Assembly (NCBI GenBank): GCA_964514565.1
Contig: CAZERA010000001.1
Coordinates: forward strand, 310,001 to 374,000
Length of the DNA: 64,000 nucleotides
From: an uncultured Candidatus Peribacteria bacterium
Lineage (GTDB): Bacteria > Patescibacteriota > Gracilibacteria > RBG-16-42-10
Direction: 5' to 3'
Every line of letters starts with the position of its first letter. Position 1 is the first letter of the stretch. Positions 24,001 through 27,000 of this stretch are shown in pieces. A program made the position numbers.

Positions 24001-27000
24001 CAATAATGAGTTGAGGGGACCAAGCTTTGGACTTAGTCCTCAGCTCATTTTGGTTTTTGTTTTCTCGGCAAGCATTTTGGTTTTGGAGTTTTGTTATGGA
24101 TTGCCGAGGCTGCGACGATGTGTGTTATACAAGGCACACATGTGGGGGCCGGATTTCCCGGTTCATCGCTCCAAGAGAGGATCTATCGCAAGACAGTGTG
24201 AAAAATTTCAATTTTTGGTTGGGCTTGGAGATCTTGTCTGATTAGAACGATGAAAAGAAAATCGTGGTTAGAACTTTTTGTTCTATTGTTGTTGTCCGAG
24301 TTGTGAGGGGCGGTGAGTGCTCTGTCTGTTCAACTGAGCTTCAAATCAATATAACCATCCGTTAGTCGATCGTCAATGATATAGAGCTGTACTTACCATT
24401 AGTCTCATTGTGTAATACTATTTGTTACAATGCATTAGATGTGGTTCTTTTGTTTTGTAGAAGTTATTTACTTGAGATTTTACCTATTACTCTGCTTGTG
24501 AGGTAAAAATGAAGAAGTAAGAGGTAAGAAGTGTATGTGCCTGCTCTCCGCAGAGGCGTAGGGACCCCTTTCTGAGCGGCTATTGTGTCCATCAACTTCT
24601 TACCTCTTATCTTTTACTTCTTACTACCTAAGCCTAAGATAGCACCGTACTTAAAGAAAAAACTATGCAGGAATTGTTATTAGAGGGCACAGTGGCTCCT
24701 CAGTTCACCGTACCATCTACTAGTGGCCACGAGGTGAGTCTGGCTGATTTGAAAGGTAAAAAGGTAGTATTGTACTTCTATCCTAAAGATGACACGCCTG
24801 GATGTACTAAAGAGGCTTGTGCTTTTAGAGACAAGACTGAGGAACTCACTGACAAAGGAGCTATTGTACTCGGGGTGAGCCGTGACAGTATTGCTAAGCA
24901 CGATAAATTCCGAGCTAAGTTTCATTTAAACTTTGATTTGCTCAGTGATGAAGCTGGCACAATCTCTGATGCTTATCATGCTTGGGGTGAGAAGAGTATG
25001 TATGGTCGTAAGTATATGGGTATGTTCCGAGTGACGTATGTTATTGATGAGGAAGGTAAGATTCTCAAGGTATTTCCAAAGGTTGATCCTGTGAAGCATG
25101 CAGATCAGATCTTGGCGGTACTATAAAGTCGTTTGTTATCAAAAAAGCAGCCCTTGCTATCAGAGGCTGCTTTTTTGATAACTGCGCGATTTTGCTACTA
25201 AACTAAAGCGTATAGCTCTTTTCTGCTTTAGATACTGTTACTTTTGGTGATACTTTCAGATCTTCTAGCGCGTATTTAATAGCTGTAGCTGATTGTGGCT
25301 CACCATGTACAATGAATATTCCCTTCAATCCTTTGATGGGCTTGATGTAATCAACAATTTCTTGATGATCAGCGTGAGCCGAGAAAGAATTGATGATCTT
25401 TACTTGCGCTCTCAAATGGTATGGCTGTCCAAAGATGCGGACAATGTTATGTCTCTCAGCAATAGCTCTACCCAAGGTGTTCTGTGCCATAAAGCTCACT
25501 ACTAGGATAATATTGTCTGGATTTTCAATTGTGTTCCGTAAATGATGAAGAATGCGGCCACTTTCACACATACCTGATGCTGAGATAATGATCATCGGGC
25601 CCTTTTTGTAATTGAGCTCTTTGGATTCATCAGCTGTATGAATATAGTGTAGACAGCCAAAACCAAATGGATCTTCTTTTTCGTTGAGGAAGCTTTGATA
25701 TGTTTCTTGATCAAAACATTCTGGATGACGACGGAAGATATCGGTAGCATTTACTGCTAATGGGCTATCTACATAGATAGGCAAGCAGGGGATTTTAGCT
25801 TTCTTCTGCAAGAGATTGAGGTGATAAATAATCTCTTGGGTACGTTCTACCGCAAAAGCAGGGATGATAATCTTGCTTCGTTTAGCAATCGCTTCATGAA
25901 TGACTGGTAACAGCTTGTCTTCCACTTCTTGATAGTTGTCATGGAGACGCCCACCATAGGTACTTTCAGTAATTAAATAATCAAGCTCAGTCCATTGGTA
26001 AGGATTTTTGATGATTGGCATACCTTTGCGGCCCAAGTCTCCAGTAAAGCCTAGCTTAGTGATTTTGCCATTTTCATTGATGGTCAGTTCCACTAAAGCA
26101 GAACCTATAATGTGTCCAGCATTGTGTAGTGTAAGACTGACACCAGGACTGATTTCTTTGGCAGTTTCATATGGTAGACCAACAAATAGCTTGCCTACTT
26201 CGATGGCATCATCCTCAGTATAGAGTGGCTCATCATTAACAATGCCAGTGCTTTGTTCGTGCATGTATTCCCAATCTTTTTCTTGAATACGTGCGCTATC
26301 TCGCAACATAATGCTACAAAGATCTGCTGTTGCTAGACTCGTATAGATAGGTCCATGGAATCCCTTTTTGACCACAGTAGGTAAATTACCGCTGTGATCT
26401 ATGTGAGCATGAGACAAAATAATCATGTCTACGTCTTTGAGCTTCTCTGCGTGATCGAGATTTCGGGCAAAGCTATCTGCTCTGCTACCTTGAATCATCC
26501 CGCAGTCCAGCAGAATTTTGACGCCATTGACCTGGAGTAGATGCGCAGAGCCAGTCACTTCTTCAGCTGCGCCAAAAGATGTAATAGTCATGTTTGTGTT
26601 TATTTATCCTATCATTGTATCATAAAATTGATTGTTTTCTTATATCTATGCTGGATTTAGTCAAAAAGATCGTAGCTAATTTCAAGGAAGCCCAAGAACG
26701 TAAATATGGTGCAGCTGTTTGCGACTTAGAAATCTTTAAAGATAATGCGGAACGAATAGTGCTACGCGGTACAATGTTAGCTAGTAAACAACAAAAGACG
26801 CTGGATCAACTTTTACGTCGCAATCATCTTGATCCTATTTGGGACCTTGTCATATTGGCCGATATGGATGAGCCACCTTTAGGCTGGGCATATGCAGACA
26901 AGACTCCCGTAAACGTGTGGAGCAAAATAATCTCAGCAGAACACTTCAGTTGGTTCCAAGAAAAAACTACAGTAAGAATTGGTACTGATCATAAATCTTG

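Follow-up and report, generated by a model that had tools for sequence, protein, structure and literature searches.

Hairpin-forming non-coding units of roughly 100–150 nt, such as the BIME of enterobacteria, the BOX elements of pneumococcus and the imperfect palindromes of the ERIC and Correia type, lie in bacterial intergenic regions at gene ends and between cistrons and are composed of modules in varying combinations. Small dispersed repeats were reportedly described in cyanobacteria by Elhai in 2008, and the small hairpin units said to be nested there in heptamer repeats are a possible parallel to the elements studied here. A separate literature concerns heptanucleotides. In many bacterial genomes these are the most frequent kind of long simple repeat, with polymerase slippage invoked to explain them; they are over-represented and intergenic, sometimes inverted, and occur between the same pairs of genes in related species (PMC4692102, PMC4679880). 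For the TAACTGA repeats of Beggiatoaceae an idea of protein binding, similar to an alternative weighed below, is put forward (PMC4679880).

The elements described here resemble the heptanucleotides of Calothrix and Nostoc, the GGGAATC repeats of Xanthomonas and the TAACTGA repeats of Beggiatoaceae in being tandem 7-nt arrays that are mostly intergenic, with an excess of period 7 and some inverted pairs. Since intergenic heptanucleotide repeats are already known in these other phyla (PMC4692102, PMC4679880), the repeat class is not new as such, and we regard the present elements as a variant of it and not as REPINs. The narrower statement of a first-pass annotation of this genome, that such repeats are not described for Patescibacteria, agrees with our literature search, which found no link to Patescibacteria or Peribacteria. 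Unlike heptanucleotide simple repeats, the arrays here are imperfect, consisting of 3–5 variant units in conserved order, and are placed within a larger copied unit that has termini, a subterminal motif and a hairpin. Moreover, several families coexist in this genome, and families are wholly exchanged between congeners.

The window analysed is a stretch of 64,000 nt (positions 310,001 to 374,000 of contig C1) from an uncultured Candidatus Peribacteria bacterium. The prototype of what we call family A is a full element at 24489..24638 of the window (C1:334489-334638, no strand assigned), with bounds taken from nhmmer arm-profile hits that have E-values of 2e-11 and 2e-8 for the two arms; the element previously placed at 24493-24640 was found there as described. 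The left terminus (CTTGTGAGGTAA) and a purine-rich heptad arm, recognized from the sequence and the arm alignment, occupy 24495..24532 on the plus strand. The arm itself (24500-24532) reads GAGGTAA AAATGAA GAAGTAA GAGGTAA GAAGT and includes a match to the family core at 24514-24531 with 0 mismatches. The subterminal non-heptad motif GTATGTGCC, defined by arm alignments, follows at 24533..24541 on the plus strand, and on the right side the prototype has only a degenerate form of its inverse, AGCCCATAC. The centre is about 60 nt long. It contains, with no strand assigned to either, a degenerate version of the small hairpin, TCCGCAGAGGCG, recognized by sequence at 24547..24558, and the motif GGGACCCCTTT at 24561..24571. 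The latter recurs in the elements of the congeners G001 and G002, in the regions upstream of bcp, where it adjoins the gene-proximal arm within the same spacer; GGGACCCCTT was located twice in this genome and 13 times in G001. GGGACCCCTTT may be a relic of an ancestral element. A pyrimidine-rich right arm (CTTCTTACCTCTTATCTTTTACTTCTTAC) and the right terminus (TACCTAAG, family consensus TACCTCCCAAG) are read from the sequence at 24596..24632, listed on the plus strand. The right arm (24596-24629) is an imperfect inverse of the left one, with a core match on the minus strand at 24596-24620. The predicted fold of the prototype has an energy of −49.5 kcal/mol on the plus strand and −52.8 on the minus strand, with z-scores against shuffles of −3.2 and −4.4, respectively.

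The downstream gene, which the ORF list gives as 153 aa at 24665..25126 on the plus strand, starts 26 nt past the element; we label it bcp, a putative peroxiredoxin-like gene, and its orthologues are present in 26 of 31 related genomes. Two contigs cover the prototype: one of 315 nt from run X1 is near-identical to it, with 2 differences, and one from run X2 is diverged (39 differences, 3 gaps); hence this copy persists in a related strain. Near-identical and roughly 86%-identical strains occur in runs X1–X14. The one RNA-library contig placed (run X15) spans 24056-24228, outside the element, and the lack of cover over the element itself is not informative.

The layout of family A is CTTGGGAGGTAA, followed by (GARGTAA)3-4, the consensus subterminal motif GTATGGGCT, a centre that is asymmetric and bears a 5-bp GC hairpin, and the inverted arm. 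The result is a dispersed imperfect palindrome of 130–190 nt, roughly 140, without coding capacity. The nhmmer arm profile retrieved 83 arms with E-values down to 3e-11, and 73 of these are intergenic under better gene calls, by which spacers make up 8.6% of the genome. The arms form 23 pairs in the order "plus then minus" and none in the order "minus then plus", while 37 arms are unpaired; the 23 full copies include all nine others listed earlier. A search for the core GAAGTAAGAGGTAAGAAG with at most 3 mismatches reproduced the earlier count of 71 merged sites, 56 of them intergenic by crude ORF calls. The reversed core gave 2 sites and 29 of 30 shuffled cores gave 0–6; one shuffled core, taken to be a near phase-shift of the heptad, gave 49. 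The family is restricted to this lineage, as had been claimed: with at most 2 mismatches, the core has 30 sites here, 0 in each of the three congeners and 0–8 in 27 other relatives. Across loci the arms share the order of variant heptads and the non-heptad termini, and the heptads inside a single arm are highly variable. A second full copy, recognized by the arm profile, lies at 56114..56245 (C1:366114-366245, no strand assigned), with the hairpin TCCAT-GCAT-ATGGA. Its centre and that of the copy at C1:402724 are reverse complements, which shows that the element is oriented.

Family A is one of several. A family-blind scan yielded 54 tracts of period 7, of which 44 are intergenic, and 0–6 tracts at periods 4–6 and 8–12; a locally shuffled genome gave 0 tracts, and relaxed settings gave 159, with 132 intergenic. 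Period 7 is likewise specific in G001 (91 tracts vs 0–16 at other periods). The intergenic excess of period-7 tracts noted by the first-pass annotation is thus real, and its heptad families CTCTGAC, AATTGTA and GAATAGT are present; we also found AAATTTA/TTTAGAT, GAAAGTT and TTCCTAT. At least six families besides family A have the same layout, which supports the view of several heptad families built on one architecture. The wording that the elements "fill" the spacers was too strong, as tracts occur in 116 of 959 spacers, and in 77 of the 274 spacers of at least 100 nt. (GARGTAA)n arrays are found across many phyla, in more than 123 stretches; the small hairpin is not their general companion there, being present at 13 of 80 loci vs 11 in shuffled sequence.

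Several of these families are represented in the window. A family-D tract (GATCAGA/GAGCAGA) at 22492..22521 on the plus strand takes up most of a 50-nt convergent spacer, and the orthologous spacer of G001 holds a 150-nt element of other families. Family B contributes an element with TGAATAA/TGAAAAA arms and the subterminal motif GTTTAGCGGCT at 31749..31884 (no strand assigned), as well as a solo arm at 7801..7848 on the minus strand. An inverted-repeat scan (score 46) detected a short palindrome of family E (TTTAGAT/AAATTTA) at 55175..55219 (C1:365175-365219, no strand assigned). A small hairpin CCGC-ATGC-GCGG (full form TCCCGCATGCGCGGGA), again unstranded, is found at 31570..31581 with a family-D heptad flank, AATCTCTGATCTCT.

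Copies of family A are homologous as whole units in one orientation: the identity of the best pairs is 0.76–0.81 forward and 0.63–0.68 reversed, and the alignment spans arms, centre and termini. Paralogous copies differ by 7-nt gaps; in orthologous elements of G001 and G002 one arm differs by a gap of 21 nt, or 3 units, and adjacent arrays show reciprocal expansion between these two genomes. Such changes of length by whole units are those expected from slippage of heptanucleotide repeats. Because whole-unit homology, including the oriented centre, and the 7- and 21-nt indels together account for the families, concerted evolution need not be invoked, and the earlier proposal that arms evolve in concert genome-wide is not demonstrated. 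Each tract might instead have arisen in place by slippage as a purely local simple-sequence repeat, without any copying between sites. Period-7 specificity, the indels in multiples of 7 nt, the wide occurrence of heptad arrays in bacteria and a perfect (ATGGCTC)n array that breaks the assembly at C1:478447-478695 all fit such an origin. Nevertheless, local slippage cannot yield 83 arms in which variant heptads follow one order and which share non-heptad termini, a subterminal motif and an oriented centre; these features, common across loci, contradict it as the sole process, and we consider this alternative very improbable. Slippage stands only as one component of the explanation preferred below.

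The two arms of one unit are no more complementary to each other than are arms of different units (0.659 within units, 0.687 between units, permutation p 0.99). Formation of the palindromes in situ by template switching, which predicts that the arms of one unit are mutual best matches, was rejected, as no such pattern was seen. Chimeric units also occur, two found by an automated scan and four more by eye, and the main element of the congeners has unlike arms; consequently, we do not retain the palindrome as the defining trait. No pair of copies is more than 81% identical, so that recent mobility is not established, and two of the best-matching copies have flanking sequence in common, hence part of the apparent copying may be segmental duplication.

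The explanation we prefer, with a probability of about one half, is that these are selfish or neutral mosaic repeats, lineage-specific and non-autonomous, which spread as units and evolve by slippage. The unit comprises heptad arms, a non-heptad subterminal motif of short length and, off the midpoint of the centre, a small GC hairpin. Whole units would be copied into new sites; the arms would afterwards change by replication slippage in 7-nt steps, and halves would be lost or recombined, giving solo arms and chimeras. Copies would survive where they are tolerated, from the upstream stop codon to just upstream of the −10 box of the next gene, and between congeners one family would replace another at largely the same sites. 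The long hairpin between the arms would then be a by-product of this design and not maintained locus by locus. In favour of this explanation are the shared non-heptad parts, the oriented whole-unit homology, the length changes in 7-nt steps, arms that are not matched locus by locus, the lack of polarity, the lineage-specific bursts, spacers occupied here and short or empty in G001, the chimeras and the heptad excess known from many bacteria. Against it are the failure to find a mobilizing enzyme or a target-site duplication, the 81% ceiling on identity, the flanks common to two copies, the excess co-occupancy of spacers and the signs of selection on the small hairpin. Spread by copy-and-insert and the absence of a dedicated cellular function are both what we infer. 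From the first-pass interpretation we keep the dispersed, lineage-specific character of the elements and the shared spacers, and we give up the REPIN-like label, the palindrome as definition and the concerted arms.

Similar spread could be achieved by classical MITEs, insertion-sequence deletion derivatives that would be mobilized in trans by a transposase, now lost or unassembled, recognizing the heptad terminal inverted repeats. The units share with MITEs their small size (130–190 nt), lack of coding capacity, dispersed distribution, bursts specific to a lineage and, in family A, terminal inverted repeats, as the 23 "plus then minus" pairs and 0 opposite ones indicate. Moreover, several spacers that hold an element here are short or empty in G001 (for example, 106 vs 17 nt and 216 vs 62 nt). 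In agreement with the earlier remark that no transposase is evident, a search of the assembly for seven transposase and reverse-transcriptase families (Y1_Tnp, DDE_Tnp_1, rve, TnpB, RVT_1, IS110 and Mutator) gave no match; the assembly is 92.7% complete, and mobile genes often stay unassembled. No direct repeat indicative of target-site duplication was seen at the ends of nine aligned copies, whose flanks are too diverged, and the empty G001 sites are too diverged for placement of the junctions. Further, a 1.1-Mb genome would have to encode several enzymes to serve at least seven arm families, whose termini differ, and neither the unlike ends of the abundant sister-species family nor the chimeric arms here are expected of MITEs. 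In view of this, an origin as MITEs seems improbable.

The comparison with other repeat classes is similarly mixed. Like BIME, BOX, ERIC and Correia elements, the units are modular, hairpin-forming and intergenic, located at gene ends or between cistrons. They differ in their heptad arms, and neither a relation in Rfam nor a TA duplication, an IHF site or a REP doublet could be seen. In the window, no Rfam family reached its gathering score except two tRNAs, the best E-value over the element being 0.55, and Rfam searches over a G001 element and over the upstream ORF-free region gave nothing. With the REPIN/RAYT system the elements share a short GC hairpin, intergenic location, many copies and the character of a population within a genome (PMC3116915, PMC3337134). 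They depart from it in having a single central hairpin of 5–6 bp in place of two inverted REPs, arms that are heptad arrays, and no Y1 or RAYT gene: RAYT (PF01797) had 0 matches in this genome (G000), while control genomes matched.

Elements closely adjoin the ends of genes. In the case of full family-A units, 8 of 9 adjacent upstream genes have a stop codon that lies within the element. Elements in tandem spacers are separated from the upstream stop by a median of 18 nt and from the next start by 35 nt, so that a separate terminator would hardly fit. A crude finder detected canonical terminators in only 33 of 351 spacers of this genome, and their usual form exists elsewhere in the genome. Together with the stable predicted folds, this arrangement suggests that the units could be functional boundary elements at the RNA level, akin to REP, BIME or BOX. 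Transcribed at the end of a gene or between cistrons, the hairpins would stop 3' exonucleases, offer sites to RNase III or reduce read-through, and the elements would be retained at certain gene junctions despite turnover of their sequence. This reading is possible, with the odds clearly against it. No bias for spacer class or, among 13 elements, for orientation was found: tracts take up 5.1% of spacer bases in tandem, 3.8% in convergent and 5.1% in divergent spacers, so that depletion in the latter is absent, and the centre is oriented 7 to 6 relative to transcription in tandem spacers (tally by eye). The stems are not followed by a U-run, as intrinsic terminators would be; instead, the AT-rich arms are followed by CCCAAG. 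The elements were also rejected as substitutes for terminators, given no significant negative association with canonical ones (odds ratio 0.45, p 0.19; 0.58, p 0.59). The arms of a unit being no more complementary than those of different units, the non-palindromic elements of the congeners and the presence of tracts in only 12% of spacers likewise argue against RNA boundary elements.

Two further roles were considered at the same gene ends. An extended −10 motif occurs within 45 nt beyond 19 of 114 element ends facing a gene start vs 3 of 83 facing a gene end; it sits outside the conserved element and most likely belongs to the promoter of the adjacent gene, and the reading as a promoter module was rejected. 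Heptads that contain a stop codon produce stops in all three frames, yet such a three-frame stop barrier does not hold as a general rule, being present in 52% of tracts in G000 vs 30% of shuffles, and in 33% vs 27% in G001. For annotation it matters that the arms supply stop codons of neighbouring genes and cause over-calls of ORFs.

The small hairpin alone shows a sign of constraint. There is one per unit, adjoining one arm, and a perfect 5-bp stem is retained in 21 of the 23 full copies (TCCGC in 13, TCCAT in 4, TCCAC in 3, TCGAC in 1). The CCGC-N4-GCGG hairpin proposed earlier thus holds for the family, in the form TCCGC-N4-GCGGA, and fails for the prototype, which is one of the two copies without a perfect stem. 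The four stem variants differ by double changes, possibly representing only about three events or sub-families. CCGC-N3-6-GCGG has 61 sites, 46 of them intergenic by our own ORF calls, vs 8 sites and 0 intergenic for the mirror GCGG..CCGC. The small hairpin is found 3–11 nt beyond the 3' ends of 8 of 41 tRNAs. The compensatory stems and the position at tRNA 3' ends point to some selected role and favour RNA boundary elements.

Congeners carry elements in the same spacers. G001 and G002 have, as had been noted, other heptads there, and they also have a different core: AATTCATCCTGAGC with at most 1 mismatch occurs 82 times in G001, 26 in G002, once in G003 and 0 times here, and the main element of G001 and G002, with its two different arms, is not palindromic. 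Among 611 conserved gene pairs, 62 are occupied here and 71 in G001, with 33 shared; the odds ratio of co-occupancy is 10.7 after accounting for residual spacer length and gene orientation (likelihood-ratio test p 1e-12), and spacers with less than 20 nt of residual length include 14 shared ones vs about 1.4 expected. Co-occupancy therefore exceeds simple random insertion and could mean either a needed function or a targeting preference; the placement of unrelated elements at the same junctions is also what RNA boundary elements would predict. Similarity of the non-heptad parts does not exceed the 95th percentile for non-orthologous pairs in 13 of the 17 shared spacers compared, and the above-background hits in the other 4 of 17 are flanking promoter or tRNA sequence, so orthology of the element centres between G000 and G001 was rejected. 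A metagenome scan for closer relatives with the downstream protein reached only 60% identity.

Strict period 7 and species-specific heptads at shared sites would also be expected of binding-site arrays for heptad-recognizing proteins, each family co-evolving with its own trans factor, and a similar idea appears for the Beggiatoaceae TAACTGA repeats (PMC4679880). At least seven families per genome would require as many factors; binding arrays would not require long shared non-heptad parts, the heptads within an arm vary much, and no candidate protein was found, none having been sought. We consider such arrays very improbable. Finally, the heptad cassettes may be a clade-wide, needed boundary device in reduced genomes, either a hairpin-centred insulator or an RNA 3'-end element at particular gene junctions, with the sequence overwritten in each lineage. 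Overwriting would proceed by homing of new units to old ones or by co-evolution with a heptad-reading factor. Both the device and its mode of overwriting appear doubtful to us, and yet this proposal would account for the presence of unrelated families at the same junctions in sister species.

Genomes of the candidate phyla radiation are commonly portrayed as streamlined, with little mobile DNA. The present genome has repeat tracts in 12% of its spacers, without a recognizable transposase. The case joins two literatures that are usually separate, on the unexplained heptanucleotide excess of bacteria and on mosaic palindromes of the MITE, REP and BIME type. It also provides an example, open to study, of families being completely exchanged at conserved sites between congeners. 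Should function or homing underlie the persistence of sites, this would indicate that gene boundaries are marked, or that elements spread without a transposase, in a way not described before.

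The element at window positions 24493–24640 (C1:334493–334640, the prototype) belongs to a family of mosaic repeats, family A, that is real and specific to its lineage; the repeats are about 140 nt long and non-coding, and their arms are heptanucleotide arrays of the GARGTAA type. The family-A units (full copies with both arms and the centre) are copied whole, altered by slippage and restricted to gene boundaries. With up to three mismatches, the 18-nt core was found at 71 merged sites in the genome and the reversed pattern at 2, which reproduces the counts of the first-pass annotation. 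Of 30 shuffled cores, 29 yielded 0–6 sites and one yielded 49; we interpret the latter as nearly a phase-shifted form of the heptad. Family A exceeds chance. An arm profile built on 30 arms detected 83 arms, 73 of them intergenic, given codon-usage-based gene calls that assign 8.6% of the genome to spacers. A family-blind scan produced 54 period-7 tracts vs 0–6 at periods 4–6 and 8–12, and none in the locally shuffled genome. Under relaxed settings 159 period-7 tracts were found (132 intergenic). Since tracts are present in 116 of 959 spacers only, the earlier statement that such elements fill the spacers is too strong.

In all 23 full units the purine arm comes first on the strand read, the opposite order being never observed. 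The aligned copies consist of CTTGGGAGGTAA, three to four variant heptads in conserved order, GTATGGGCT, 4–6 nt and the small hairpin TCCGC-N4-GCGGA, followed by 20–50 variable nt, AGCCCATAC, the inverted arm and CCCAAG. Because the hairpin adjoins just one of the arms, the unit is oriented; the centres of two copies are reverse complements of each other. A perfect 5-bp stem is retained in 21 of 23 units in four variants (TCCGC in 13, TCCAT in 4, TCCAC in 3 and TCGAC in 1) that differ by paired changes. The pattern CCGC-N3-6-GCGG is specific, with 61 occurrences in the genome, 46 of them intergenic, against 8 for its mirror image, none of which is in a spacer. The same hairpin, mostly as TCCCGC-N4-GCGGGA, follows 8 of 41 tRNA genes (e.g. 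C1:401820–401910 and C1:278859–278952) at a distance of 3–11 nt from their 3' end, which suggests that it acts at the 3' ends of RNAs without depending on the heptad arms.

The prototype is an imperfect palindrome and one of the two units without a perfect stem. Its left arm (24500–24532), with CTTGT just before it, is formed by five heptads, GAGGTAA AAATGAA GAAGTAA GAGGTAA GAAGT; the right arm (24596–24629) is its imperfect inverse with the terminal sequence TACCTAAG. About 60 nt between the arms contain a degenerate small hairpin TCCGCAGAGGCG at 24547–24558 and the motif GGGACCCCTTT at 24561–24571. The folding energies of the two strands are −49.5 and −52.8 kcal/mol (z −3.2 and −4.4), and no Rfam family matched the element. 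It is present at the same site in a 315-nt contig of sequencing run X1 (2 differences) and in a diverged contig of run X2 (39 differences and 3 gaps over 24357–24641). A 153-aa gene begins 26 nt past its end, and about 890 nt separate it from the preceding called gene; the named record most similar to a neighbouring gene (L314, 85% identity) carries the label Candidatus Peribacteria.

The gap upstream holds a conserved ORF-free stretch of about 0.8 kb (approximately 23650–24420), shared by a family of related genomes. Most of it can be aligned with the congener G001, and the related genomes G002–G007 have blocks such as TTTTGGAGTTTTGTTATGG and GGCTTGGAGATCTTGTCTGATTAGAACGATGA in common with it. 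A 173-nt RNA-library contig (run X15) is identical to 24056–24228 within it, and no Rfam, tRNA or tmRNA match was found over it. We consider this stretch a candidate undescribed structured RNA. At 25135–25182, past the downstream gene, an A-run, a GC stem and a T-run form a canonical bidirectional terminator; hence ordinary terminators exist in this genome besides the heptad elements.

Other heptad families following the same plan were identified by self-comparison and an inverted-repeat scan. They are built of TGAATAG with GTTTAGCGGCT, AATTAAC/AATTGTA, GGTCAGA/GGGCAGA with TCCCGC-N4-GCGGGA, AAATTTA/TTTAGAT, GAAAGTT and TTCCTAT. Among the 83 family-A arms, 37 have no partner; 2 of these in an automated scan, and 4 more by eye, stand opposite an arm of another family, and several adjoin ordinary terminators. 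Short family-D units of about 55 nt (e.g. C1:587111, C1:417502 and C4:86578) carry direct rather than inverted heptads flanking TCCCGC-N4-GCGGGA on either side, with a terminal T-run about 15 nt past the hairpin; several start 8–20 nt beyond a stop codon. Outside the window, at C1:478447–478695, a family-A arm adjoins a perfect (ATGGCTC)n microsatellite of at least 20 units, where the assembly is broken by an N run; it looks like a live slippage array. Self-comparison also revealed a repeated coding segment of a multi-copy gene family (C1:489600–507500, C3:104460 and C4:32722), unrelated to the heptad elements.

Heptad arrays are widespread. The arm pattern GTAARARGKAAGAGGTAARAA occurs in more than 123 stretches from many phyla, and among the matches listed most are plain (GARGTAA)n arrays and few are palindromic. 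Such arrays, some palindromic, were seen in a Bacteroidales record (L127) and in L096, L121, L090 and L128; two copies of TCCCGCACGTGCGGGA, a hairpin of the family-A type, lie between heptad arrays at one Bacteroidales locus. Unrelated metagenome loci totalling 584 kb contained 21 period-7 tracts and at most 10 at any other period, in agreement with the available text of a study in which heptanucleotides are the most abundant long simple repeats in most genomes and slippage is held responsible (PMC4679880). The same text describes TAACTGA repeats in Beggiatoaceae, Cyanobacteria and Bacteroidetes, for which a binding-protein hypothesis was proposed. Our search of the literature on Patescibacteria, the candidate phyla radiation and Peribacteria found nothing relevant on such repeats, and the terms "palindrom", "hairpin", "transposase" and "mobile" are absent from the available text of the Peribacteria genome paper (PMC4736985).

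Judging from sequence comparison, whole-unit copying and local array change both appear to be at work in family A. The best unit pairs have identity of 0.76–0.81 in the forward orientation vs 0.63–0.68 with one unit reversed. This homology, in one orientation only, takes in the non-heptad parts, and independent slippage cannot produce it. Similarity between two of the best-matching copies extends into their flanks; part of the copying may therefore have been by segmental duplication. Slippage is seen in the 7-nt gaps that distinguish copies. When orthologous elements of the congeners G001 and G002 are compared, one arm shows a 21-nt gap and adjacent arrays have expanded reciprocally, the rest being well aligned. 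Complementarity of arms is 0.659 within a unit vs 0.687 between units (permutation p 0.99); therefore the long helix is not maintained locus by locus. The earlier description of the elements as REPIN-like is not supported: family A is not a REPIN, and Y1_Tnp (RAYT/IS200), DDE_Tnp_1, rve, TnpB, RVT_1, IS110 and Mutator had no match in this genome (92.7% complete), each of the seven enzyme families having matched some control genomes.

The evidence does not establish family A as a classical MITE, a terminator or a structured RNA. Tracts account for 5.1%, 3.8% and 5.1% of bases in tandem, convergent and divergent spacers, respectively; by our tally, centre orientation relative to transcription in tandem spacers is 7 to 6, and canonical-terminator absence has no significant association with tract presence. 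Units span from the upstream stop codon to just short of the next gene (median distances in tandem spacers: 18 nt from the stop codon and 35 nt from the start codon), and at 8 of 9 gene ends adjoining full units the stop codon is inside the element. An extended −10 motif lies beyond the element at 19 of 114 start-facing ends vs 3 of 83 gene-end-facing ends; it is not within the conserved unit.

Family A is lineage-specific: with up to two mismatches the core occurs 30 times here, 0 times in each of three congeners and 0–8 times in 27 other genomes. Nearly the whole genome of G001 was used for comparison; it has 91 period-7 tracts vs 0–16 at other periods, built of different heptads (AAAGTTG 39, AATTCGC 30, and others). 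Its main element is non-palindromic: an AATTGCG-type arm and an ACTTTCM-type arm enclose a conserved core, about 60 nt long, that includes ATTCATCCTGAGC...GAAGGATCC. The core (also given as ATTCATCCTGAGC...GTCGAAGGATCCGGCCGACATA; examples of the element in G001 and G002 are L034:10085–10244 and L060:4030–4240) was counted 82 times in G001, 26 in G002, once in G003 and 0 times here. In G001 and G002 the small hairpin (TCCCGC-N4-GCGGGA in G001) is sometimes inserted in the loop of the core, and their element has no Rfam match.

Based on 805 reciprocal best hits between our genome and G001 (median 77% amino-acid identity), 611 conserved neighbouring gene pairs were obtained. Tracts are present in 62 of these spacers here, in 71 in G001 and in 33 in both (odds ratio 10.7, LRT p 1e-12, after control for residual spacer length and gene orientation), so the proposal that congeners carry other heptads in the same spacers holds. 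Co-occupancy is strongest where the spacer is hardly more than the element (14 shared, 5 and 11 single, 311 neither). Several single spacers have sub-threshold element pieces in G001; there are true absences too, e.g. 106 nt vs 17 nt. In 13 of 17 shared spacers, the non-heptad parts of the elements in the two genomes resemble each other no more than background. By eye, the prototype's spacer holds tracts of other kinds in G001, G002, G004, G006 and G007 and no heptad tract in G003 and G005; the GGGACCCCTTT of the prototype corresponds to a module that the G001 and G002 elements have in this spacer. Similarly, the available text on Xanthomonas GGGAATC repeats describes them as intergenic and sometimes inverted; most are flanked by the same genes in both of two species but vary in length and sequence (PMC4692102).

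Co-occupancy may mean that a limited number of permissive junctions has become saturated, that new units home to existing ones, or that a function is needed at the occupied junctions. That unrelated families in sister species repeatedly occupy the same junctions is the most unusual result of this study, and it keeps a functional or homing explanation alive.
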